Below are positions 36,821 to 53,131 of a DNA stretch of 64,000 nt, piece by piece. The stretch spans positions 12,985 to 76,984 of the forward strand of contig MWDD01000007.1 of the NCBI GenBank assembly GCA_002070375.1, read 5' to 3'. The first letter of the stretch is position 1. Each line of letters begins with the position of its first letter. The notes beneath the pieces were generated by a model. That model worked only from the letters and a program-made list of their open reading frames with translations. It had not been told where the DNA came from and made no database searches. A program made the position numbers and the translations under genes. The stretch comes from a bacterium ADurb.Bin157. Lineage in GTDB: Bacteria > Muiribacteriota > Ozemobacteria > Ozemobacterales > Ozemobacteraceae.

Positions 36821-37810
36821 ATGAAAGTAACATTAGAACAAATCGAATCGTTTCAGTTGTTTAGTAAACTTTCTAAAACAGAACTGGAAGAATTGATGCC
36901 CATGTTTGAAACAGTAACTTTTAAAGCAGGCGACAGGGTTTTCAAAGAGTGCGAAGAAGGCGATTCTATGTATCTTATACTTAGCGGGAGCGTAGATATA
37001 AGAAAATGTATCGATTTTGAATGTGGCACAGAAAAATCATTGGCAACTTTGCCAAAAGGGGACTTTTTTGGCGAAATGTCTTTGTTGACAGGCGAAAGCA
37101 GGTCTGCATCTGTTTTGGTTTTAGAAGACGCTTTGTTGCTTAAAATTTTGAGAGACAAATATATTGACCTGATGACTAAGAATCCTAGCATGACTTCGCT
37201 TCTTCTAGGCGGTTTGGTTAGCTCTATCTCAAAGCGATTAAGAGCAACAAGCCTCGAATCGGTGACCCTTTATGAAACCGGCAGAATTATCAGTAATACA
37301 AAAAATGTAAAAGATTTGTCCGCTAAAATTTTAGACAGACTTATTAAGTCAACCGGTGCAGAAGCCGGCGTTATTCTTTTTTGGAATGAAATTGTAGAAT
37401 GTTTCGAGATAGAAACCATACTAGGGAATAAAAATGAAACATTGGCTACGGCTTTTAATGGACACAGTAAGTTTTCAGAGTTTTTGCTTGGACTTAAAGA
37501 CCCCTTTGTTACCGATGAAAATCACAAGTTTGTCGAAATTAAAGAAACCGGATTAGACTGCAAAGGAATGGTTTATGTACCGTTACTTACCGATTTGCTA
37601 GACTTAAATGACCCGTATAAATATGTTAAAAAAGTAACCGGAGTTATAATTTTGGGCCACTCAAACCTAAATCATTTTACCCTTTCGAACTTAACTTTGA
37701 TGAAAGGTGTGGCAGAGCAGGTTGCTCAAGCTTTGCTTAATGCGAAGTTATTGCAGGAGAATGAGTCTAGACGAGCCTATGAACAGGTGTATGTAACTCC
37801 CGGGTTTTAA
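36821..37810 (+). CDS. cyclic-nucleotide-binding (CAP_ED) domain protein with GAF-like C-terminal domain
   Basis: FKAGDRVFKECEEGDSMYLILSGSV...FFGEMSLLTGESRSASV is a cNMP phosphate-binding cassette. It lies 14 nt downstream of pilT. Confidence 0.8.
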   Translation: MKVTLEQIESFQLFSKLSKTELEELMPMFETVTFKAGDRVFKECEEGDSMYLILSGSVDIRKCIDFECGTEKSLATLPKGDFFGEMSLLTGESRSASVLVLEDALLLKILRDKYIDLMTKNPSMTSLLLGGLVSSISKRLRATSLESVTLYETGRIISNTKNVKDLSAKILDRLIKSTGAEAGVILFWNEIVECFEIETILGNKNETLATAFNGHSKFSEFLLGLKDPFVTDENHKFVEIKETGLDCKGMVYVPLLTDLLDLNDPYKYVKKVTGVIILGHSNLNHFTLSNLTLMKGVAEQVAQALLNAKLLQENESRRAYEQVYVTPGF

Positions 37811-39527: not shown

Positions 39528-42389
39528 ATGCCTAAGAATACCGACTCTAATGTTCATAAAGAGATTGAAGATTTAGTTACGGATTTACGTTCTACTCTTG
39601 TTACAAAGCGACTTAAAGCAGTTAAAGAATTAGGAAAACTTAAAACCGACTTGGCGGTTGAGCCGTTGGTTTATACATTGAACGATCGTTCAAAAGAGGT
39701 TCGGTGTGCGGCTGTTGAGGCCATTGGTTTAATAAACCCCGCCAATTTGGCAGATTTAATTGTTTATTTAGCCAAAGATAAATCTGCCGATGTTCGTTTG
39801 CGGGTGGCTCACGCTTTAGGTTCAAATACAACAGATTTGTCGGTTGATACTCTGATGATTTTGGTCAGAGATCAAAAAGACGAAGTTGCTAATATGGCTG
39901 CAAAAAGCTTGTCAAAGAACCCGACAGGCAGCTTGGCTTTATTGATAAGGCTTTTTGCCGATAATTCTTGGAAGTTGCGTTCAAGGGCTGCTGCCGCTGT
40001 TACGAGAATGGGCAAAGTCGCTACAGAAGCTTTGAAAGTTGCACTTGAAGACAGCGATTCAAATATTCGTTTTTGGGCGATAACCTGCCTGGGTCATCTT
40101 CGTGACAGATCTAACAGCAAGCTTTTGGTAACAGGATTAAACGATAAAGACCCCGGAGTAAGAATAGCTGCTCTCAGGGCTTTACGAGAACTTGGCGACC
40201 CAAATATCGCATCTATGTTGTTTGAAGCTCTTTCTCAACCGTCAGATCGCGTCAGAGACCTTGTTTATGAGATTTTAAAAGATTTTGGCACACATTCGAT
40301 CCCCTATTTAATGGATTCGCTGTCTAATGAGTTTTGGATGGGGCGTTCGTTAGCGGCCCAAGCCTTAACCGACATGGGTGCTGATGCGGTTGCCCCTTTA
40401 GTAAGCGCCTTAGAAAGCCAAGACAAAGAAAGACGATATTGGGCAATAAAAATACTCGGAAAAATGCGGGAAAAAACGGCTTATGCCGCGATAAAAAAGT
40501 TTCTCAGCGACCCTGACCCCGAAATAAGAATGGCGGCCCTCGAATCTATGGGCTATTATCTTGATACCGAGTCTATACCAAACCTTATAGAGCGGTTTAT
40601 GGACCCCGCTTGGGTTGTTAGAAAGCACGCGGCAAGGGCTGTTACCGCATTTGCTCATAAGGCGGTTCCGTTTTTGATAAAGTCGCTCAAATCAGAAGAA
40701 GAAGATGTCAGATATTGGGCTTTGCGTTCTCTTGGGGATCTTAAGCCAATAGGAATTTTTCCGGTATTGGTTAAGCTTTTTACAGACCGTTCATGGACAA
40801 TAAGAAAAACTACTTCTGATGTTTTATCTGAATACGGGGAAGACGCTTTGATGGAGTTAACGGCTTTGGCGGCAGATTCAATTGAGTCGGAAACCAAATA
40901 TTGGGTTTTGCGTTCACTCGGAAAAATTAAATCAAAGATATCTTTGCCGTTGCTGTTCAGGGCACTTGACGATGAATCAGAATCTATTATGGATGCTGCT
41001 CAGAAAGCTTTGTCAAATTATGGTGAAGAAATAATAGACGATCTGTTTGCTTTGTTTAAAAGTGAAAAACGCAGATTATTAGAGAGTGTGTGCAATACTT
41101 TTCAGCGTATGGACGCAAAGATCGTTGTTCCGAAGTTGTGCCGTAATCTCGGAAAATTTGATGAGCAAATAAGCTATTGGATACGCAGAACTCTTTGCGG
41201 GTTTAAAAAAGACTCGCGCGAAGAGATTTTAAAGCTATTGCAAAGCAAATCTGAAGAAATTAGGCGCCAGGCTGTTATATGCTTAGGACAATTTGGCTTT
41301 GAAGAAGACGCTAAACACGTTTTGCCTTTGTTAAAAGATGAATCATGGCCGACGAGAATCGCGGCAGCAGAGGCTTTGGGTGAATTGGGCGACCCCATTT
41401 CTGTTTCCCATTTAACAGAATCATTAGAAGACGAAGACGAAGATTTGGCCATGGCTTCCATGATTTCGCTTGGTAAAATAGGCGATGAACGGGCTGTTCC
41501 CGGTCTTATATCAACTCTTCACCACGAATCTTGGGCATTAAAGTTTCAGGCAATCAGAATATTAGGTGAAATGCGAGTAAACAGGGCCTTTATAGATCTT
41601 TTAAGATTACTGGACGAAGACACATTAGATCTTAAAACCCATATTATAGGAGCTTTATCGCGTATTTCTCACGCAAAATGCTATGATGAATTAAAGAAAA
41701 GGTTTGAAAAAGAGAAAGATTCAGAAGTCAAAATGGCTTACATTGAAGCTTTTGCAGAAATCGGAAACAAAGACATTCTTTCTTTGATTGTTAAACTGGC
41801 GAGAGAAGGCAACGAAAACCGCGAAGAGCGGCGCGCAGCAATTAGAGCATTAGGTAAAATGCACGCTATTGAAGGAAAAAATGTTTTGTTGGCGGCCTTG
41901 CGCGAAAAAGACGCGGTAATAAACAGAGAGGCGCTTTCTGCGTTAGAGCTTATTCTTGATCGCGACGAGTTTAACAGAACAGAAAAAGCGATTACTGAGG
42001 CAAGAAAAAAGCAAGAGGCTTTTACTGTGGCGTTTAATACGGGAATGAGCAATATGCGCACAAACAATTACACAGAAGCGGAAAAGCATTTAAAAGAGGC
42101 TGTTAAAATTAATCCTAGAGCGTCTTATGTGTATTCGGCTCTGGGAAATCTTTATTACAAAACAGGACGCTTGATAGATTCGACAAAAGCTTATGTTATG
42201 GCAACCGGCTTATCCCCGCAAGATGTGACTTTGAAATTGAATCTGGGAATGGTGTATTATCGAAGAAGAGCTTATAAAGAAGCTGTCGGCATGTTTGAGT
42301 CTGTTTTGTCGGTAGCAGGGCCGAAGTCGCAGCAGGGCGATTATTCTGCAAAAATGATAAATAAAATCAAAAGTGAAATTAAAAAATAA
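39528..42389 (+). CDS. giant HEAT-repeat (PBS-lyase HEAT-like) protein with C-terminal TPR repeats
   Basis: 953 aa. It has about 20 iterations of the pattern ...VR..A..ALG..GD..A...L...L.D....VR. The final ~120 aa are TPR-like (YTEAEKHLKEAVKINP...). Confidence 0.85.
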   Translation: MPKNTDSNVHKEIEDLVTDLRSTLVTKRLKAVKELGKLKTDLAVEPLVYTLNDRSKEVRCAAVEAIGLINPANLADLIVYLAKDKSADVRLRVAHALGSNTTDLSVDTLMILVRDQKDEVANMAAKSLSKNPTGSLALLIRLFADNSWKLRSRAAAAVTRMGKVATEALKVALEDSDSNIRFWAITCLGHLRDRSNSKLLVTGLNDKDPGVRIAALRALRELGDPNIASMLFEALSQPSDRVRDLVYEILKDFGTHSIPYLMDSLSNEFWMGRSLAAQALTDMGADAVAPLVSALESQDKERRYWAIKILGKMREKTAYAAIKKFLSDPDPEIRMAALESMGYYLDTESIPNLIERFMDPAWVVRKHAARAVTAFAHKAVPFLIKSLKSEEEDVRYWALRSLGDLKPIGIFPVLVKLFTDRSWTIRKTTSDVLSEYGEDALMELTALAADSIESETKYWVLRSLGKIKSKISLPLLFRALDDESESIMDAAQKALSNYGEEIIDDLFALFKSEKRRLLESVCNTFQRMDAKIVVPKLCRNLGKFDEQISYWIRRTLCGFKKDSREEILKLLQSKSEEIRRQAVICLGQFGFEEDAKHVLPLLKDESWPTRIAAAEALGELGDPISVSHLTESLEDEDEDLAMASMISLGKIGDERAVPGLISTLHHESWALKFQAIRILGEMRVNRAFIDLLRLLDEDTLDLKTHIIGALSRISHAKCYDELKKRFEKEKDSEVKMAYIEAFAEIGNKDILSLIVKLAREGNENREERRAAIRALGKMHAIEGKNVLLAALREKDAVINREALSALELILDRDEFNRTEKAITEARKKQEAFTVAFNTGMSNMRTNNYTEAEKHLKEAVKINPRASYVYSALGNLYYKTGRLIDSTKAYVMATGLSPQDVTLKLNLGMVYYRRRAYKEAVGMFESVLSVAGPKSQQGDYSAKMINKIKSEIKK

Positions 42390-43726: not shown

Positions 43727-44107
43727 ATGCGTAAAGTAATTCTTGTTTCTGCCCTTTCTCTTGTTTTGAGCGCTGCCCCTTTGTTTGCCGGTCCTTCTAA
43801 CAGCCAATCTTCACAGACTTCACAGCAGTCTTCTCAATGTTCACAGCAATCTGGTAATTGTTGCCAAAAACCCGGAGCTTTCTCTAAAATAAAAGATTCT
43901 TTCAAAAAGGGTTTTCAGGCAGGCAAAAAAGTTGGAACAAAAGCTCATGACAGCATTCAGAACAAAGTTATGGACGGCGGAGTTTGTGTAAAAGAAAAAC
44001 TTACCGGGAATAAAGACAAAACTTTTGTTAAAGGTTACTATACAAAAGATGGTAAGCATGTAAAAGGCCATTGGAGAAACTTAGAAACCAAAAAAGGCAA
44101 AAGATAA
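43727..44107 (+). CDS. small secreted basic protein
   Basis: Signal peptide MRKVILVSALSLVLSAAPLFAG, a Q/S-rich segment with a Cys cluster (QCSQQSGNCCQKPG), and a basic C-terminus GYYTKDGKHVKGHWRN. Confidence 0.6.
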   Translation: MRKVILVSALSLVLSAAPLFAGPSNSQSSQTSQQSSQCSQQSGNCCQKPGAFSKIKDSFKKGFQAGKKVGTKAHDSIQNKVMDGGVCVKEKLTGNKDKTFVKGYYTKDGKHVKGHWRNLETKKGKR

Positions 44108-44230: not shown

Positions 44231-45217
44231 ATGAATATACTAAAATTACGCTTGTTTTTTATATTGTTCGCAGTCTGTTTTATTTTACCCGCGTATGGAA
44301 TGGCAGATACGCTTGTTTCAGACGCTATTTCTTTATTTCCGAATGAGGAACCTTATACCGCAGAAAAAACAGAGCCGGAATATACCGAGACTTTTTTAAA
44401 TTATAACGGGGAGCATTTTGTACCCGCCCACTTGAAAGCCTTGCTAAGCAAAACAAACAGAATAGTATTAACATTTGACGATGGCCCTCACCCTAATGCA
44501 ACGCCGCATATTTTAAAAGTTTTGAAACAGTATAATGTGCGTGCTGTGTTTTTTGTTTTGGGGTTGCAAGTCGAAAAATATCCCGAGTTGGTAAAAATGA
44601 TTTATGACGACGGTCATATAATAGGAAATCATACCTACAGTCATAAGCGTTTACCGGATTTGTCAGAAGAAGAAATAAGAACCGAAATAAGAAGAACCGG
44701 TAACTTAGTAGCTTCTATAACCGGCAAAAAACCCACACTACTGAGACCTCCATACGGTATCGGGGTAAAAAACAGAACGCTGCAAAAAATAGCTGCGGAA
44801 GAAGGGCTAAAATTCTTTTTATGGACAGTTGATTCAAGAGATTGGAAAAATAAGAATTCAAAAGCCATATTGACTTCTGTGGAAAAACAGCTTGGAATAG
44901 GCAAGAAAAACAAAGTTGGCGGGGCTGTGCTTTTGCATGATATATATTCAACTACCGCAAACGCTATTGAATATATAATCAAAAGCGCATCTTCTTCGGA
45001 TTATGTTTTTATTGATCCTTATGAAATGAATCTTACAAACCAAGAACTTATGGCTTCTCGAATGAAAAATGAATACAGATCTTTCGATCCCGCTTTAAGT
45101 GGCAATGATCTTCTCGTTACAGTGCTGACAAAAGAAAAAAAGGAAATTAAAACCATCGATATAATAAGAGCTCATCGCCAAGGTAATTTAATGCTTTTTC
45201 TTGCTCTAAATAAATAA
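44231..45217 (+). CDS. polysaccharide deacetylase (NodB domain; peptidoglycan/chitooligosaccharide deacetylase-like)
   Basis: Signal peptide, then NodB motifs VLTFDDGPHPNATP, GNHTYSH and LLRPPYG. Confidence 0.85.
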   Translation: MNILKLRLFFILFAVCFILPAYGMADTLVSDAISLFPNEEPYTAEKTEPEYTETFLNYNGEHFVPAHLKALLSKTNRIVLTFDDGPHPNATPHILKVLKQYNVRAVFFVLGLQVEKYPELVKMIYDDGHIIGNHTYSHKRLPDLSEEEIRTEIRRTGNLVASITGKKPTLLRPPYGIGVKNRTLQKIAAEEGLKFFLWTVDSRDWKNKNSKAILTSVEKQLGIGKKNKVGGAVLLHDIYSTTANAIEYIIKSASSSDYVFIDPYEMNLTNQELMASRMKNEYRSFDPALSGNDLLVTVLTKEKKEIKTIDIIRAHRQGNLMLFLALNK

Positions 45218-45296
45218 CTCAGTCAGGGTATTTTCTTCTCTTGACAATGAGCAGATTCCGTTTTAATCTGTACAAAGAAACGTAACGGGAGGGCTT

Positions 45297-46226
45297 ATGA
45301 AGCATAAATCTACTTTGGCTTTGGTTTTTTTGTTTGCTTTTGTTTGCGCATCGTCTTTTGCGGCAGAACTACTGTCTCTTGTGCCGCATGATGCAAACTT
45401 AGTCGTTAACCTTGGTTTAAATAAAGTTGTTAACAGACCCGAATTACGATCAGTTCTGGATGCTCTTTTGCCTGCTTACGAGGCATCATTTGATAGTGTT
45501 TTTACTAAAGCCGGAATAAATCCGGTTTATGACATTCACAACGTACTTTTCTTCATAGATAAAGACGATAAATTTGCAGTTTTGGCAGACGGCAGCTTTG
45601 ATGCTATTAAAACTTGCGAACTTGCTCAAACAGACCCCGATATTTCTCGTGCTTTTACTCTGACTGCAATTGGCGGGCTTCCTGCTCTTAAAAGTGAGCT
45701 TGATTCAAATGCAAATGTTGTGTTTGTAGATCAACAAACTTTAGCCTTTGGTGATATGTCGGTTCTTGAAAAAATTGGCGAAATGTCTGCCAACAAAAAT
45801 ATTAAAAGTATACAATCGAACAGAATGTTTACATATATGTTACGAAAGCTTGATACAGATACTCCTCAACTTTGGGGTGCTGCCATGAGCGGCAAAAAAT
45901 GGTTTACAGCCATTAATACTCCAAAAAGCGGGATTGATAACGTGAGAATCACATTTTTTGGTTTAACTTACGATGAAGATTTTATACTTGACTTTACTTC
46001 TCTTGTCGCTCGAAACAGTCAACTCCAAGAGCTCGTAGACAGCCTTAGCGAACTGCTTGGCGGTTTCAAAGCATATGTCGCTTCTGTTGAAGGAATGAGC
46101 AAAATATTAGATAACGCCGTAATTCAAGATAACAGAGAAAACTTAGCCCGAGTTGTAATAAAAATGCCCATAGAAAAATTTACAGCTTCTTTGCTGAGCA
46201 TTGGAGCTTACTTAGATAAGAAATAA
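45297..46226 (+). CDS. secreted hypothetical protein
   Basis: 309 aa with a signal peptide MKHKSTLALVFLFAFVCASSFA. No family recognised. Confidence 0.6.
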   Translation: MKHKSTLALVFLFAFVCASSFAAELLSLVPHDANLVVNLGLNKVVNRPELRSVLDALLPAYEASFDSVFTKAGINPVYDIHNVLFFIDKDDKFAVLADGSFDAIKTCELAQTDPDISRAFTLTAIGGLPALKSELDSNANVVFVDQQTLAFGDMSVLEKIGEMSANKNIKSIQSNRMFTYMLRKLDTDTPQLWGAAMSGKKWFTAINTPKSGIDNVRITFFGLTYDEDFILDFTSLVARNSQLQELVDSLSELLGGFKAYVASVEGMSKILDNAVIQDNRENLARVVIKMPIEKFTASLLSIGAYLDKK

Positions 46227-46447
46227 TGCTCTACTATTACGCTATTCCCTTCGCCCTCACTCTTTTGTTTGCTTTTGCGTATTTGCTCGTGCAGATTATG
46301 CTTGTGCTCTTTGACCTCTTAAACCCCTTCTGGGATTATTGGGACACCATACGCAAAAAGTATTCAATCCTGATAGGCTTTGAGTTTATTTATTTTGCCG
46401 CGATATTGTATTATATCGTCTATTACGAATTGTCCGGCAGTTTCTAA
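46226..46447 (+). CDS. small hydrophobic membrane protein (2 TM)
   Basis: 73 aa, packed tightly between neighbouring genes (start overlaps the upstream stop; its stop abuts the next ATG). Confidence 0.45.
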   Translation: MLYYYAIPFALTLLFAFAYLLVQIMLVLFDLLNPFWDYWDTIRKKYSILIGFEFIYFAAILYYIVYYELSGSF

Positions 46448-48181
46448 ATGGAATCTTTGCAACAAGCATTTGTTTTGTCTGCGGCTTTTGCCTTTGTAAT
46501 GTGTCTTGCGGGTATGTATCTTACCCGCCGCATACTTTTTAAGCTTGGTCGGGGAAGTTACTGCGGTGCCTTCCCCTTTTTCGGCGGATTGTTAGGCAGT
46601 GCTATTGCCTTGAATATATTGCCTCACCCCGATTTTTTACCTGTGTTTTTGGGCTTTTTATCTCTGGCTGTAATTGGCTTTTTGAGAGACTTTGATTCTT
46701 TGTCTTATTCCTCGCTGATCCCATATTCTCTTTTAATCGTATCTTTTACGCTAATAGGCATTCTTCCCCCCGGTTTTGCTTTCGTAGAATTTCTTACCGC
46801 ATTTTTGTGGGTTGCGATGATTATGTTTTGTTTAAAATTATCGGCGCTCGTATACGAAATGCCATTTTTGTTAATAAGTCTCACTTCTTTAAGCTCGTTT
46901 TTGTTTTTTTTGCATAATCCGCCCGCTTCAAGTTTGAGCATGCCAATAATCTCCTCGCTTTGCGTGTGCGGTTTCGGGCTTCTTTTTGCCGGTAAGCTAA
47001 AAGAAAAATCTGCCGATTCCCTAAAACTCCCGAATAAGCGTTTTTTACTCGGTTCTTCCGGTATTTTTTCAGGCGGCTTTTTATTGGGAATCGTCACCGT
47101 ATCGGAACAATCTCCCGGTTTGGTGCTTTTAGGGCTTTGCATACCCTCTGTGGTGATATTCCTTCCCTTTATTATGATAACAGGAATGATTGTGTTCTCA
47201 TATATCGGAAATAAGCTGCATATGCCCGAAAATAACATCGAAAGCCGCGCTTATTCTTGGTCATTAAAGCGCGAAAAAACAGTTTTATTTGCGGGCTTAG
47301 TGTTTTTGTGCCTAAATTTTGCCTGGCTAATTTTATCTCTTAAGACACCTTTAATTGCTTTAGTTATGTTGTTACTTCTTTTGAGTATGACCATTGGCGG
47401 TTTTTTAAATACTTTTATTCGCAAAAAAAAGTCTTGCGAAGTTTTACCGAACCGAATTAATATTATGGGAATAAGCATAGATGCTTTGAGCCCCTCTTTG
47501 GTCGTTGATAAAATCGCTGCCTTTGTTGCCGCCCAAAAATTTGCTCACGTCATTACCGCCGATTCCTTAGCCCTTGTAAGAGCTGATGAAGACAACGCGT
47601 TTAAAGCGGTATTCGAAAAAGCGGAACTTGTGGTTCCCGACGGCGCCGGAATAGTTTGGGCCTCTGACTTTTTGGGGCTTCCCTTGCCGGGAAGAGTTCC
47701 CGGAGTTGCTCTTGTTTCTCAAATATGTGAAAGAGCCGCAAAAGAGAAATACCGAATATTTTTTGTGGGCGGAAAACCCGGTGTTGCAGATAAGGCTGTG
47801 GATGTTTTGAAAGAAAACAATAATATTGATGTCTGCGGCGTGTCTCATGGCTTTTTTAAAAAGAATTCGGCCGATGAAGAAAAAATCATAAGAAAAATTA
47901 TCGAAACTAAGGCTCAAATAGTCTTTGTGGCGCTTGGGGTTCCTCGCCAGGAATGGTTTATAACAAAATTGCGCGAATACAACGCTAATTTAGTTGCAAT
48001 CGGCGTCGGAGGCAGTTTTGACGTTATTTCGAAAGAGTTGCCAAGAGCCCCGATATTTATGCAAAGATTTGCACTTGAATGGTTATTCAGACTCTGCTTA
48101 GAACCTTCAAGATTTTCGCGAATGATTAAAATTCCGCTATTTGTTCTCAAGGTTTTGAGGCAAAAATGGAATAGTGATTAA
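46448..48181 (+). CDS. fusion protein: N-terminal polytopic membrane domain + C-terminal WecB/TagA/CpsF (GT26) glycosyltransferase
   Basis: The C-terminal ~240 aa carry LVVPDGAGIVWAS, FFVGGKPGVADKA, IVFVALGVPRQEWFI, GVGGSFDV and LEWLFRLCLEPSR, the GT26 signature. The N-terminal ~330 aa are very hydrophobic. Confidence 0.8.
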   Translation: MESLQQAFVLSAAFAFVMCLAGMYLTRRILFKLGRGSYCGAFPFFGGLLGSAIALNILPHPDFLPVFLGFLSLAVIGFLRDFDSLSYSSLIPYSLLIVSFTLIGILPPGFAFVEFLTAFLWVAMIMFCLKLSALVYEMPFLLISLTSLSSFLFFLHNPPASSLSMPIISSLCVCGFGLLFAGKLKEKSADSLKLPNKRFLLGSSGIFSGGFLLGIVTVSEQSPGLVLLGLCIPSVVIFLPFIMITGMIVFSYIGNKLHMPENNIESRAYSWSLKREKTVLFAGLVFLCLNFAWLILSLKTPLIALVMLLLLLSMTIGGFLNTFIRKKKSCEVLPNRINIMGISIDALSPSLVVDKIAAFVAAQKFAHVITADSLALVRADEDNAFKAVFEKAELVVPDGAGIVWASDFLGLPLPGRVPGVALVSQICERAAKEKYRIFFVGGKPGVADKAVDVLKENNNIDVCGVSHGFFKKNSADEEKIIRKIIETKAQIVFVALGVPRQEWFITKLREYNANLVAIGVGGSFDVISKELPRAPIFMQRFALEWLFRLCLEPSRFSRMIKIPLFVLKVLRQKWNSD

Positions 48182-48190
48182 GGGTTTTTA

Positions 48191-48970
48191 ATGAAAAATA
48201 TAGTAATATTAGGCCAAATTCAGCACGAATTGCAGCAGCAGCACCTTAAAAATCTTATTAGTGCCGTAAAAGAAGATGTTAAAAGGGATTGCTTGATTTT
48301 TTGCAATTCCGGAGGGTTGTTTTCTTCAGCTCCCGAATTGGAAAACCAAGTGGATAAACTCTTTAATTCGGGAATAGATGTGCTATTTTTGGGTGAACAA
48401 GCTATAACACGCTGCGCAGGAAGAAATATTTTAGAAAAAAATAACTTTAATATAGTTAGGCCCGCTAATTTATCGCCGTTAGCTCCTGGAGCAGGAATAA
48501 AGCGCTTTAAATTAGACGGTTATGAGTTTTGGGCCATAAGCTTAGTTGATCACAGCGGTAAGATTCCGGCAAATCCCGCATACATAGAATTAGATAATTT
48601 TTTTACCAACAAAACCGACGACTTACCCGTATATATTAACGTGAACGGAACCGATATGCGTTATAAAGAAGCCATGACCTGGAAAATAAGCGCTTATAAC
48701 TTTAAAACCCTCGTTTTCGGAAGCGGATTAGGTTATTTGATTGCTTCAGAACCATACTCGAATTCTTGCTCATTTATACCCGACGCGGGAGCTGTAGTAA
48801 CTCAAAAAACAATCGGAGGCATAAAACCCGAATCTTGGTGGCGTAAAAATATTGATAAAATTCCTATTACCGTTTTCCCCGAATGGGGAACTCTAAAATG
48901 TGATTACAGCGTTATTTCTTACGATAATGAAAAATCGCAAAAAATTTTACACAAAACGATAAAAATCTGA
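48191..48970 (+). CDS. YmdB-like (TIGR00282-type metallophosphoesterase fold) protein with metal-ligand motifs apparently lost
   Basis: NIVRPANLSPLAPGAGIKRFKLDGYEFWAISLVDHSG aligns by eye to B. subtilis YmdB NLVRPANFPEGTPGKGITYVKANGKELAVINLQG. The expected D/GNH/GTHTH positions read differently here (see finding). Confidence 0.6.
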   Translation: MKNIVILGQIQHELQQQHLKNLISAVKEDVKRDCLIFCNSGGLFSSAPELENQVDKLFNSGIDVLFLGEQAITRCAGRNILEKNNFNIVRPANLSPLAPGAGIKRFKLDGYEFWAISLVDHSGKIPANPAYIELDNFFTNKTDDLPVYINVNGTDMRYKEAMTWKISAYNFKTLVFGSGLGYLIASEPYSNSCSFIPDAGAVVTQKTIGGIKPESWWRKNIDKIPITVFPEWGTLKCDYSVISYDNEKSQKILHKTIKI

Positions 48971-49020
48971 TAGAATGTGACTGTTTATTATATTGTTTTA
49001 AACATAAGGAGACCACGAAA

Positions 49021-50733
49021 GTGGCAGAAAATCCTATAACAGGCTTTCAGAGCATATTATTTGAGGCTCAGAGGCAAATATTGGCCAATGGTAAAAACAT
49101 TGATGCCATTTTGAGAATATTAGCCCAAACTTCATGTGACCTTTTTGACGTCAAAGGTTTGGCGGTAATTTTCTATGACCAATCTTCGCAAACCACTCGA
49201 ATTCGTTTTAATGACGGTTTTGAAGAACATATATTAAACGAGTATTGCATCTACTTCACCAAAAACAAAGCAGATAAAGCTGTTTTTGAAAGATCTATGC
49301 TCGAACAATGCGGTTCGAACAACTATTTTGTCCCCCTTGGAAAAAAAGAAGAGCCTTTTGGGGCAATACTTTTGAAGCCTATTGATGAGTCTCTTTATCC
49401 AATAGGTGATAGTTTTATAGAATTAGCTGCTACCGCACTCGGAACCTTTTTAGAATTAGAACTTGTTCATCTTAGAATGGAAGAAATGAACGCTTTGCTT
49501 GAAGTTGGCAGAGTTGTCAGTTCAACACTTGACTTAAAAGAGCTGTTGACTAAAATTATGAGCACAGCGACAAAGGTTATGCGTTGCGAAACTTCTACTG
49601 TTTACTTAGTTGACCAAAATTCAAATGAACTTTATTTTCATATTGTAAGCGGTGATTCCAATATCAGCGCTAAACTCCAAGAAATACGACTCCCCATGGG
49701 AACCGGCTTGGCAGGGTGGTGCGCACAGAATAATGCTCCCGTAATTGTGCCTGATACATCTAAAGACCCAAGGTTCTTTAAAGGTGCCGACAAAAAATCA
49801 GGCTTTGTTACGAGGTCGATGCTTTGTGTGCCTATGTGTCACAAAGATACTGTTGTTGGGGTTTTGCAGGTTTTAAACAGAACCGGAGACATTCCTTTTA
49901 ACGATCATGATCTCGAAACTCTTGTGAATGTGGCTAATCAAGCTGTCTCAGCTATTGAAAATGCTAGATTATACGAAAATATACAAAAAATATATCTTTC
50001 AACAATTGAAGTCTTGGCAACGGCAATAGATGCTAAAGACCCCTATACTCAGGGTCATTCTCGCAGAGTTACACAATATTCGGTAGCTATAGCAGAACAA
50101 ATGGGGCTCGCACAAACAGAAGTCGAAAATATCAGATACGCCGGTCTTTTGCACGATGTCGGTAAAATCGGTATAAAAGACAGTATTATACGTAAGCCCG
50201 GACGTTTAACCGATGAAGAATATGCCATAATCAAAATGCACCCGTCAATTGGCGCGAGAATTTTAAGACCTGTTGATTTCTTGGCAGACAAGATTCCGGG
50301 AGTTCTTCACCATCACGAATATTATGACGGGCGCGGATATCCTGACCACCTTATCGGAACAGATATACCGCTTGCCGGTCGTATAATTTGTGTGGCAGAC
50401 GCTTTCGATGCAATGACTACCAATCGCCCATACCGAAAAGGACTTTCTGTAAACACAGTTATTGCCGAACTTAAAAAATTCTCAGGCAAACAATTTGATC
50501 CTGAATGTGTTCAAGCCTTTTTAAATGCTTTCGATGAAAAAATTTCTCAGTATTTTGAACCGACAGATGACGGGGCAGATATGGTTCTTATTGATGATGA
50601 AACCGGTAAAGAAGCCCCTGAAGACGAAATGATAACAGAAGGAACCCCTTCTTCCCAGCCTTACCCTCCTATGGCTCACCCCGACGAAGAGAAAAAAACA
50701 GATTCACAGCCATTTCCTCCTATAAAGTGTTGA
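49021..50733 (+). CDS. GAF-domain HD-GYP c-di-GMP phosphodiesterase
   Basis: GAF regions, then HSRRVTQYS...LLHDVGKIGI...HHHEYYDGRGYP. GTG start. Confidence 0.9.
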   Translation: MAENPITGFQSILFEAQRQILANGKNIDAILRILAQTSCDLFDVKGLAVIFYDQSSQTTRIRFNDGFEEHILNEYCIYFTKNKADKAVFERSMLEQCGSNNYFVPLGKKEEPFGAILLKPIDESLYPIGDSFIELAATALGTFLELELVHLRMEEMNALLEVGRVVSSTLDLKELLTKIMSTATKVMRCETSTVYLVDQNSNELYFHIVSGDSNISAKLQEIRLPMGTGLAGWCAQNNAPVIVPDTSKDPRFFKGADKKSGFVTRSMLCVPMCHKDTVVGVLQVLNRTGDIPFNDHDLETLVNVANQAVSAIENARLYENIQKIYLSTIEVLATAIDAKDPYTQGHSRRVTQYSVAIAEQMGLAQTEVENIRYAGLLHDVGKIGIKDSIIRKPGRLTDEEYAIIKMHPSIGARILRPVDFLADKIPGVLHHHEYYDGRGYPDHLIGTDIPLAGRIICVADAFDAMTTNRPYRKGLSVNTVIAELKKFSGKQFDPECVQAFLNAFDEKISQYFEPTDDGADMVLIDDETGKEAPEDEMITEGTPSSQPYPPMAHPDEEKKTDSQPFPPIKC

Positions 50734-50806: not shown

Positions 50807-53131
50807 ATGGAACTTAATGTAAAATATCGTGACTACATATTAGATGATTTTCAAATTCAAGCTATCACCGAAATTGAGAACGGTCATTCACTTGTTTTAT
50901 CAGCGCCTACCGGCTCAGGTAAAACTCTTGTGGCCGAATACCTTATTGAAAAAGTCTTAAAATCGGACAAAAGAATTATTTATACTTCTCCGATTAAAGC
51001 TTTGTCGAATCAAAAATACCGCGATTTTTCGCGCCTTTACGGTGATAAAGTTGGTATTTTGACAGGCGACGTCGTTATAAATCGAGACGCGCAGGCATTG
51101 ATTGTTACGACTGAAGTATACAGAAACATGGCCATGGAAGACCCCGAGGCAATAGCTGATGTTTCTTATGTGATATTCGATGAAATTCACTATTTAGGTG
51201 ATATTGAACGCGGAACCGTCTGGGAAGAATCTATAATTTTTTCTCCAAAAACAGTTCGTTTCCTTGCGTTATCGGCGACCATACCGAACTGTGACGAATT
51301 GGCCGGTTGGATAGAATCTGTGATTGACCACCAAGTTAAGGTTATCAGTCATAACAATCGTGCTGTGCCGCTCTCGTTCTTGTTTCATTATAAAAAACAG
51401 CTCATAACTTTTAAAGAGTTGAAAAAGAAGGTTACAGGTAAGGGCGCTCTTGATGAGGCTTTTGAAGATCACAAAAGAGGAAGAAGGGGCAAAAAAGAAA
51501 CAGAGTTTAGACATTTAGATATAATAAAAAATTTGCGCAACCTTGATCGACTTCCTTTGTTGTATTTTGTCTTTTCTCGTGCATTAGCCGACAAATTCTC
51601 GTATGAAACGTCCCGAAAAATGGACTTTACCACGCCAAAAGATAAGGCAGAAATAGAAGAAATTGTCGATTCCTGCTTAGAAAAATATCAATTACAAAAC
51701 CTCGAAACAGCTCAAAGACTGCGTGAGGAACTTTTAAAAGGCGTGGGCCGCCATCATGCGGGTTTGATGCCTCAACTCAAGGAATTAGTTGAAATTTTAT
51801 TTGCTAAAAAGTTTTTAAAAGTTTTGTTTGTTACCGAGACTTTTGCGGTTGGAATTAATATGCCCGCAAGAAGCGTCGGGTATGATGCTTTAAAAAAATA
51901 TGACGGGCGCAGTTTTCGGCCGATGCAATCGTTAGAGTTTACACAAATATCCGGCAGAGCCGGCAGGCGTGGTATCGATACCACCGGTTGGGTCGTTGTT
52001 CCTCACATTCCGAGCGACTTATCAATTATAGAATTGCAAAACTTAGTCTATGGTGATATCGAACATCTCGAGAGCCGCTTTGACTTATCATTTAACAGTG
52101 TTCTAAACCTATATTCCGGGCATAAAACCGAAGAAGTGCGAACAATTTTGAAACGTAATTTCGCTCAGTTTCAGGCAAATAAAAAATTGCCCGAGTTGAC
52201 TTCCAAAGTTAATAAAATTCGCGCTGAAATAGAAGCTATAATGCCTAGATGCCCCGAAAAAAAGAATGATTTCGAAGACTATATGGTGTTTTATAAAAGA
52301 AAACAACAACAAGAAGACACCATGAACAGGCAGCTGAACAACATCAGATTCGGTATGCGCGGCCGAAATAAAAATAACCACTTTGAAATGGAAGACTTGA
52401 TGAAAAAGTTTTCTAAAAACAGAGAACAGCTTACCGAAAAAGAAAATACTTTTATTTGCGGGAAATGCAAAACAAAGAATAAGTGTATCTCTAAATATCA
52501 GCAAACTGTCAAACTGCAGAAAAAACTCGATTATTGGCGCGAATTGCTTGAAGAACAGGGTGAATTGCAGCTGCCCCTATATGAGCGAAAACTTGAAATA
52601 TTACGTTCGTTAGGCTACATAGATGCGAACGGATTATTGCCAAGAGGCGAGTTTGCAAGCAGAATACACACAGAAGAAATAACAGTGACAGAACTAATGT
52701 TTCACGGATATTTTCACGAGTGCACAGAACACGAGATAAACGCGATCGCCCTTTCCCTTGTTTATGAATACAGAAGACGGGGTGGAGCAGCAAATAACGA
52801 TCAGAGCAGAGTGTTAAGCAAATTGCCCGAAAAGCTTAAAAGCGCAAAAGGGTTCGTGAATAGTTTGGCAAGACAACATTCTTTTGTAAAACCTCTTGAA
52901 AACAAAATTTGCCACTTAATGCTTGCCTGGAGCGCCGGAGCGACTTTTGAAGAGATAATGGATATGACAGATATTCCGGAAGGCGACATTATAAGAGCTT
53001 TCAGACAGGTAATAGACCTGCTTAGACAAATAAGAGACGCAGTAAAAGATATGAGCTTGCGAGATAAGCTTCTGACTTGTTTGGCTTGTATAAACAGAGA
53101 TATTGTATTGGCAACGGAGCTAAGAGATTAA
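50807..53131 (+). CDS. Ski2-like (HelY/Mtr4-type) DExH RNA helicase with C-terminal DSHCT-like domain
   Basis: APTGSGKTLVAEY, FDEIHYLGD, SATIPN and ISGRAGRRG. The C-terminal block IPEGDIIRAFRQVIDLLRQI is DSHCT-like. An internal Cys cluster reads FICGKCKTKNKC. Confidence 0.85.
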   Translation: MELNVKYRDYILDDFQIQAITEIENGHSLVLSAPTGSGKTLVAEYLIEKVLKSDKRIIYTSPIKALSNQKYRDFSRLYGDKVGILTGDVVINRDAQALIVTTEVYRNMAMEDPEAIADVSYVIFDEIHYLGDIERGTVWEESIIFSPKTVRFLALSATIPNCDELAGWIESVIDHQVKVISHNNRAVPLSFLFHYKKQLITFKELKKKVTGKGALDEAFEDHKRGRRGKKETEFRHLDIIKNLRNLDRLPLLYFVFSRALADKFSYETSRKMDFTTPKDKAEIEEIVDSCLEKYQLQNLETAQRLREELLKGVGRHHAGLMPQLKELVEILFAKKFLKVLFVTETFAVGINMPARSVGYDALKKYDGRSFRPMQSLEFTQISGRAGRRGIDTTGWVVVPHIPSDLSIIELQNLVYGDIEHLESRFDLSFNSVLNLYSGHKTEEVRTILKRNFAQFQANKKLPELTSKVNKIRAEIEAIMPRCPEKKNDFEDYMVFYKRKQQQEDTMNRQLNNIRFGMRGRNKNNHFEMEDLMKKFSKNREQLTEKENTFICGKCKTKNKCISKYQQTVKLQKKLDYWRELLEEQGELQLPLYERKLEILRSLGYIDANGLLPRGEFASRIHTEEITVTELMFHGYFHECTEHEINAIALSLVYEYRRRGGAANNDQSRVLSKLPEKLKSAKGFVNSLARQHSFVKPLENKICHLMLAWSAGATFEEIMDMTDIPEGDIIRAFRQVIDLLRQIRDAVKDMSLRDKLLTCLACINRDIVLATELRD

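Follow-up and report, generated by a model that had tools for sequence, protein, structure and literature searches.

We analyzed a 64,000-nucleotide (nt) stretch of DNA from the bacterium ADurb.Bin157, hereafter the window, in which the open reading frame (ORF) at 48191..48970, the YmdB-like gene, directly precedes a gene for a GAF-HD-GYP protein predicted to degrade cyclic di-GMP (c-di-GMP). The YmdB-like protein belongs to the YmdB family by score and fold, has lost every metal ligand of that family, and most likely is a pseudoenzyme; the features of the locus are collected in Table 1.

Table 1. Features of the YmdB-like gene, its product, and the surrounding genes in the window
Feature	Position	Strand	Remarks
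Polysaccharide deacetylase	44231-45217	+	PF01522
Co-directional envelope genes upstream of WecG	44231..46447	+	
309-aa protein	45297-46226	+	Hydrophobic, signal-peptide-like N-terminus
73-aa membrane protein	46226-46447	+	
Polytopic membrane domain fused to WecG/TagA/CpsF glycosyltransferase	46448..48181	+	577 aa; PF03808, residues 392-559
YmdB-fold protein without metal ligands, probable pseudo-phosphodiesterase	48191..48970	+	259 aa; ATG start
Motif I remnant ILGQIQH, residues 6-12	48206..48226	+	G8 retained; YmdB FIGD, D8 to Q9 (profile alignment)
Motif II remnant FCNSGGLF, residues 37-44	48299..48322	+	N39 retained; NGEN to NSGG, E39/N40 to G41/G42
Motif III remnant LGEQAIT, residues 67-73	48389..48409	+	GNHxxD to GEQxxT: N67 to E69, H68/D71 to Q70/T73
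R74-x-x-x-R78, clade-specific, right after motif III	48410..48424	+	R78 100%, R74 88% of 34 members
R90-P91-A-N93, YmdB-family signature common to active members	48458..48469	+	Clade R 94%, P 100%, N 100%
Motif IV remnant NVNGT, residues 150-154	48638..48652	+	DFH to NVN: D148 to N150, H150 to N152; G153 clade-specific
Motif V remnant GSGLGYLI, residues 177-184	48719..48742	+	GTHTH to GSGLG: H175 to G179, H177 to G181; conserved GxGxG loop
W216-W217, clade-specific, on helix 213-220	48836..48841	+	W216 100%, W217 88%; canonical Val/Ile
G42			82% in clade; canonical YmdB: Asn
G153			97% in clade; canonical YmdB: Ala 96%
G179			97% in clade; canonical YmdB: His
G181			82% in clade; canonical YmdB: His
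Spacer of 50 nt with Shine-Dalgarno block TAAGGAGACCAC (49005-49016) ahead of GTG start	48971..49020	+	
PmGH-type GAF-HD-GYP c-di-GMP phosphodiesterase	49021..50733	+	570 aa; GTG start; Pfam GAF + HD_5

A YmdB-family protein without metal ligands

The ORF matched Pfam PF13277 (YmdB) over profile positions 3-246 of 253 with 50.6 bits (E 2.1e-13; gathering threshold, 27 bits), and its score of 36.1 bits against TIGR00282, the model of functional YmdB, did not reach the NCBIfam cut-off of 254.15. In a phmmer search of the PDB, Bacillus subtilis YmdB (4b2o_A) was retrieved at E 0.0017, and the alignment includes the central RPAN segment. When canonical YmdB proteins were used as tblastn queries, this ORF alone was found in the window (1e-10 to 2e-13), with neither a second copy nor a canonical YmdB elsewhere in the 64 kb. 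Its identity to canonical YmdB members is ∼20%. By score and fold the product is a member of the Pfam YmdB-like family; by score, ligands, and catalytic pair it falls outside the functional metallophosphoesterases of TIGR00282.

YmdB binds its metals through Asp8, Glu39, Asn40, Asn67, His150, His175, and His177 and has His68/Asp71 as its catalytic pair (PMC10406935). B. subtilis YmdB and 27 further proteins with all seven ligands were combined into a canonical-YmdB profile, to which the YmdB-like protein aligned end to end (58 bits). According to MAFFT and this profile none of the seven ligands is present, the corresponding residues being Q9, G41, G42, E69, N152, G179, and G181, and the catalytic pair is replaced by Q70/T73. 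The same register was obtained by three independent methods (MAFFT, phmmer, and the canonical-YmdB profile). A rescue of the ligands by a shifted register was considered and rejected, as none of these alignments restored an Asp, His, or Asn ligand. All orthologues surveyed showed the same ligand loss. Because none of the seven ligands and neither catalytic residue is left, dimetal catalysis has very probably been lost.

The fold was examined in an AlphaFold2 model of the YmdB-like protein built on 34 family sequences, for which the mean predicted local distance difference test score (pLDDT) was 92.8 and the predicted template modeling score 0.90. The four best Foldseek matches in the PDB were the four solved YmdB-family structures (E 1e-16 to 1e-18), with template modeling (TM) scores of 0.83 for 4b2o_A, 0.81 for 1t70, 0.81 for 2cv9, and 0.80 for 1t71, and the first match outside the family was Vps29 (TM 0.34). 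As modeled, the YmdB-type calcineurin-like fold is retained. The initial annotation, made by eye from the sequence, had proposed a relationship to YmdB, an alignment of the central segment with the B. subtilis protein, five motif replacements, and a preserved fold. The full-length PF13277 match above threshold and the superposition on YmdB structures bear out the relationship, the phmmer match to 4b2o_A reproduces the central alignment, all five replacements recur in the profile alignment with no ligand conserved at a shifted position, and the pLDDT and TM scores agree with the retained fold. Its suggestion that catalysis is probably lost is likewise supported by the missing ligands and catalytic pair.

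A phylum-wide clade with a remodeled site

We searched 1.84 billion representative proteins exhaustively and obtained 50 matches. At 50% identity, some 35 clusters (P0002-P0037; 22-67% identity to the query) group on a single branch apart from canonical YmdB, and no member keeps more than two of the seven ligands. Wherever an organism is named, the members come from Candidatus Riflebacteria, Ozemobacteraceae, or Rifleibacterium, including those that are 24-30% identical to the query; in public records they appear as "YmdB family metallophosphoesterase" or "calcineurin-like phosphoesterase." We conclude that loss of the metal site is a trait of a phylum-wide clade and not a single case.

There is also a separate second branch of degenerate YmdB-like proteins (P0045, P0042, P0049, P0050, P0055, and P0058) with zero to three of the seven ligands, the motifs GE, NxDG, GD, DFH, and GTHxK, and DxGRxGS in place of DVGMTG. 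The gene for P0045 (L033:6001-6798, also L034 and L035) lies 9 nt 3' of a gene for an 849-aa methyl-accepting chemotaxis protein. Proteins with PEGA repeats (P0025, P0034, P0038, P0040, P0041, P0044, and P0046, up to 2255 aa) matched query residues 74-153 with E down to 1.5e-21 for the best, but the score was summed over many short repeats; we judged these matches, which comprise 5-11 repeats resembling TPxxLxxLxPGxHxVxVxxxGYExW or PGxHxVxVxxxGYExW, to be a repeat-summing artifact and rejected these proteins as relatives.

The ratio of nonsynonymous to synonymous substitution rates (dN/dS) was 0.05-0.10 in five pairs of orthologues whose dS was not saturated (0.17-0.63), including 0.10 for the query and its L001 orthologue, and the ORF was intact in 33 of 33 loci. 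The YmdB-like gene is under strong purifying selection and is not decaying. Loss of all catalytic residues would also be expected of a functionless remnant of a decaying gene, but this explanation, alone among the rivals considered here, is refuted: selection, ORF integrity, and invariant clade-specific residues contradict it, as does a fold predicted with high confidence.

Conservation was compared between a clade alignment of 34 members and the canonical YmdB set. Besides the glycines listed in Table 1, the clade conserves G177 (94%) and N39 (82%). The positions of the clade-specific arginines hold no conserved residue in canonical YmdB (the commonest being Gln, 36%, and Glu, 29%); R74 and R78 are located one and two helical turns past Q70, the old catalytic His position. 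The helix that carries the tryptophan pair was assigned from the AlphaFold2 model. Signatures away from the ligands are as conserved as in active YmdB and are common to both groups: N39, D63, R90-P91-x-N93 (R 96%, P 100%, and N 100% in canonical YmdB), P99-G100, K159, A161, D198-x-G200, and G210. Since the replacement residues are themselves conserved in the clade, the active site has been remodeled and has not merely died or drifted. Homology, loss of the catalytic residues, and purifying selection together make the YmdB-like protein most likely a pseudoenzyme.

Strong purifying selection would also suit a protein that is still an enzyme and works without the canonical dimetal center, either with a single metal at E69/D63/D198 or by metal-free catalysis in a Gly/Arg pocket on a nucleotide or sugar-phosphate. 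Conserved polar residues do stand at or near the old site (position 69, which is acidic in most clade members, N39, D63, D198, K159, R90, N93, R74, and R78), and the fold has been repurposed before: the lasso-peptide epimerase MslH is built on a YmdB-like calcineurin fold in which the metal site is rearranged and one Ca(II) is used, and does work other than that of a phosphoesterase (PMC10406935). MslH, however, retains Asp, Glu, Asn, and His ligands, carries extra domains, and is encoded in a gene cluster for a peptide that is made on the ribosome and modified after translation, whereas the YmdB-like protein has lost every such His, including the general-acid His. Three of its ligand positions are Gly, incapable of side-chain coordination, and position 9 varies among Q, V, E, S, N, and other residues. 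We regard an enzyme of this kind as quite unlikely.

Many pseudoenzymes act on active relatives, and YmdB-family proteins are oligomeric. The YmdB-like protein might accordingly, as an inactive paralogue, enter into hetero-oligomers with a canonical YmdB encoded elsewhere and modulate it, for which the preserved fold and non-ligand signatures would be suitable. Such a role is very unlikely, given the lack of a canonical YmdB in the window, the low identity to canonical members, and a conserved genomic partner that is an HD-GYP gene and not a YmdB gene.

We also compared the YmdB-like protein with the PilZ receptors of c-di-GMP, which have RxxxR and (D/N)xSxxG motifs on a PilZ beta-barrel. RxxxR is present, but inspection of the YmdB-like protein by eye revealed no (D/N)xSxxG motif, and its fold is that of YmdB; the assignment was rejected.

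The GAF-HD-GYP partner and the neighboring genes

The downstream protein matched PmGH of Persephonella marina (4mcw_A, E 6e-66) over residues 156-511, an alignment that covers both the GAF and HD-GYP domains, with HD and HHExxDGxGYP intact and no HD-GYP motif missing. The enzyme appears to be catalytically intact. Its GAF domain also matches those of CyaB2, PDE5, and PDE2 in the PDB and in this respect resembles GAF domains that bind cyclic nucleoside monophosphates (cNMPs). Unlike PmGH, the Riflebacteria protein has a dedicated YmdB-like gene upstream and an extra N-terminal domain of ∼155 aa (residues 1-155, 49021-49485) with no Pfam match. Mean column identity is 93% in the GAF and HD-GYP domains and 65% in the N-terminal domain. 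An hhalign comparison of the N-terminal ∼150 aa with the GAF domain gave a probability of 0.3%; the region may be for docking or may represent a degenerate GAF domain.

Gene order was compared across 33 loci (23 lineages at 90% identity, 16 at 70%), of which 29 have readable downstream sequence (19 of the 23 lineages at 90%) and four lie on contigs that end too early. The GAF-HD-GYP gene is directly 3' of the YmdB-like gene in 27 of the 29. At L016 the two are separated by a gene for a CHASE2-class III nucleotide cyclase, and at L008 the YmdB-like gene is followed by a CHASE2 gene that runs off the end of the contig. The adjacency reaches down to YmdB-like proteins of 22-30% identity. The initial annotation had hinted at a link to the GAF-HD-GYP gene from the 50-nt distance, and this hint is strengthened by the adjacency across the 29 readable loci, with L008 ending in the CHASE2 gene. 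These results support a functional tie between the YmdB-like protein and the c-di-GMP-degrading HD-GYP protein. The CHASE2 genes (L016:2310-4286, a complete cyclase, and L008:4145-4792, of which only the CHASE2 part is readable) occur in two distant lineages and overlap the YmdB-like stop codon by 4 nt; they suggest that cNMPs may feed into the module.

Of the 26 loci at which the distance from the YmdB-like gene to the HD-GYP gene was measured directly, 25 have a spacer of 49-70 nt, and L009 has one of 114 nt. All 18 aligned spacers contain an AGGAG-type Shine-Dalgarno block (AAGGAGACCAC in eight of them) followed by a GTG start (TTG at L009). Elsewhere the spacers show no conservation, and the Shine-Dalgarno block and GTG persist across lineages whose YmdB-like proteins are ∼40% identical. 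No terminator-like site was found within 48971-49020, and promoter and terminator scans gave counts no higher than in shuffled sequence.

In the window's subclade only, the upstream neighbor is the WecG fusion, whose stop codon lies 9 nt before the YmdB-like start in the window; in L002-L005 and L031 the two overlap by 4 nt. L002-L005, L007, and L031 preserve the fusion at ∼47% identity, and its membrane domain of ∼330 aa (residues 1-330, 46448-47440) has no Pfam or NCBIfam match. The order deacetylase, 309-aa protein, 73-aa protein, WecG fusion recurs in L002-L005, L007, L017, and L031. Most lineages instead have, directly upstream of the YmdB-like gene, a gene for a ∼500-aa protein that is found only in Riflebacteria and has no Pfam domain (20 of 33 loci, among them L013:5419-6933, with equivalents in L006, L008, L009, L012, L014, L015, L018, L020-L027, L029, L030, and L032; absent from the window). 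In its AlphaFold2 model (pLDDT 86.9) a helix at the N-terminus leads into a series of more than 20 beta-strands, and the sequence ends in ...SW.SHF. The model's structural matches were only to outer-membrane barrels (Cir, BtuB, and FadL), which suggests that this protein is an outer-membrane beta-barrel. The gap from the barrel gene to the YmdB-like gene is 56-265 nt. A convergent Polysacc_synt_2 gene lies downstream of the module in 13 of 33 loci.

These neighbors raise the alternative that the upstream envelope proteins, the WecG fusion or the barrel, are the real partners, that the YmdB-like protein is a cytoplasmic scaffold or receptor of polysaccharide export, and that the HD-GYP gene is merely co-regulated. 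The 4-nt overlap or 2-9-nt gap with WecG, the deacetylase and WecG genes upstream in the window, and the frequency of the barrel and Polysacc_synt_2 genes fit this arrangement. Against it, the upstream gene is not conserved over the clade and the HD-GYP gene is, the barrel gaps exceed those to HD-GYP, and a cytoplasmic protein without a signal peptide would have no direct contact with an outer-membrane barrel. We consider this arrangement unlikely; it is compatible with a role in the HD-GYP module and may describe the output of that role. Because the upstream gene varies and the HD-GYP partner does not, the stable unit is the YmdB-like gene with the HD-GYP gene, set among envelope and polysaccharide genes.

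A Ski2/HelY-like DEAD-box helicase gene with a DSHCT domain (50807-53131, + strand) is directly 3' of the HD-GYP gene in the window's subclade; in most of the remaining lineages its place is taken by the convergent Polysacc_synt_2 gene. The helicase is 78-97% identical in L001-L003, L017, and L031, and its PADLOC matches to HamB reflect generic helicase similarity.

Proposed role and comparison with known systems

The explanation that we favor, with a probability of roughly 0.6, is that the YmdB-like protein is a catalytically dead YmdB derivative that serves as a non-enzymatic, most probably nucleotide-binding, accessory of the GAF-HD-GYP module. In this proposal the dimetal site would have been rebuilt as a metal-free, glycine-lined pocket flanked by the RxxxR and WW pairs, and the gene would be co-expressed with that of the PmGH-type GAF-HD-GYP protein. 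Binding of a ligand or partner without hydrolysis is suggested by the combination of a dead fold, a cNMP-like GAF domain, an occasionally coupled cyclase, and an intact HD-GYP domain. The ligand would most probably be a nucleotide, such as a cyclic mononucleotide, c-di-GMP, or pGpG, and the HD-GYP protein itself might be an alternative or additional binding partner. The arginines and glycine backbone amides could, speculatively, take the place of the metals in holding phosphate. By tuning c-di-GMP turnover, the YmdB-like protein would control the neighboring envelope and polysaccharide functions. Four parts of this proposal are inferred: that the protein does no catalysis, that it binds a ligand, that it contacts its partner physically, and what its output would be.

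In vitro, canonical YmdB breaks down cyclic mononucleotides, an activity on which its role in the switch between biofilm formation and motility depends (PMC6123443). A more far-reaching version of the proposal is that the metal-free YmdB fold represents a new type of receptor for nucleotide second messengers, which would take up cyclic AMP or cyclic GMP from the CHASE2 cyclase, or c-di-GMP or pGpG, in the Gly-lined RxxxR/WW pocket and allosterically switch the HD-GYP protein and hence polysaccharide export in Riflebacteria. We offer this version tentatively and consider it doubtful.

Several observations weigh against a non-enzymatic HD-GYP accessory. The YmdB-like protein diverges far faster (22-58% identical across loci) than the HD-GYP protein (62-73%), and none of the 50 representative matches is a fusion of the two. 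In the window's subclade the YmdB-like gene is coupled most tightly to WecG, its upstream neighbor (-4 to +9 nt). E69, D63, N39, and D198 remain in the query, and a single weak metal site formed by them is conceivable. R74, R78, W216, and W217 would line the old catalytic pocket, as deduced from their positions along the chain.

The YmdB-like protein shares fold and length with the YmdB/TIGR00282 proteins of known structure (B. subtilis YmdB, 4B2O; Deinococcus radiodurans DR1281, 1T70; Thermus thermophilus TTHA0625, 2CV9; and Mycoplasma pneumoniae MPN349, 1T71), and it differs from them in the absence of all seven ligands and the catalytic pair, in its HD-GYP genomic partner, and in its confinement to Riflebacteria wherever a host is named. 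The domains of LapD, FimX, and PelD derive from enzymes acting on c-di-GMP itself. Like these degenerate EAL/GGDEF receptors, the YmdB-like protein would place a catalysis-dead, nucleotide-metabolizing fold in a c-di-GMP module beside envelope and polysaccharide genes. Its fold is unrelated to theirs, however, YmdB acts on cyclic mononucleotides, and the YmdB-like protein is a putative binder. Vps29, the retromer scaffold, has a calcineurin-like fold that binds proteins and is not an enzyme, and in the role proposed here the YmdB-like protein would be another metallophosphoesterase fold in non-enzymatic use. In contrast to the YmdB-like protein, Vps29 is eukaryotic, belongs to a different metallophosphoesterase subfamily, has no nucleotide-signaling context, and is a remote structural match.

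To our knowledge, HD-GYP proteins form the less understood branch of c-di-GMP turnover, with few dedicated protein partners. In the full-text literature on YmdB together with pseudoenzyme, HD-GYP, or PF13277, we found no description of the clade or of a YmdB-HD-GYP link. If our proposal is right, PmGH-type HD-GYP proteins have in the YmdB-like gene an accessory that extends across the phylum, derived from a cyclic-nucleotide phosphodiesterase minus its metal site. The protein would then be a candidate regulator or receptor of a new kind, following the LapD/PelD logic of a degenerate enzyme on a metallophosphoesterase fold. A systematic annotation error would also be corrected, as the name "metallophosphoesterase" is attached to proteins that appear incapable of binding a dimetal center. 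Since the hosts are uncultured, the impact of these proposals rests on heterologous biochemistry.

Two other readings of the locus were dropped: anti-phage defense, as the YmdB-like protein matched none of the PADLOC defense-system profiles, and a horizontal-transfer island, as base composition is uniform across the window, with a flat GC content of 36-42%. Further upstream on the + strand is a 126-aa ORF (43727-44107) with a hydrophobic N-terminus, a low-complexity stretch rich in Ser and Gln (SNSQSSQTSQQSSQCSQQSGNCCQ), a Lys-rich tail after it, and no family match. The same strand carries a gene for a 953-aa protein (39528-42389) that consists of HEAT repeats over nearly its whole length (10 HEAT_2 stretches, E 1e-106), with TPR repeats at the C-terminus. 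A 329-aa protein (36821-37810, + strand) has a domain for cyclic-nucleotide binding (PF00027, E 6e-20) and, toward its C-terminus, a weak GAF-like match, so that proteins of cyclic-mononucleotide signaling are encoded nearby in the same genome.

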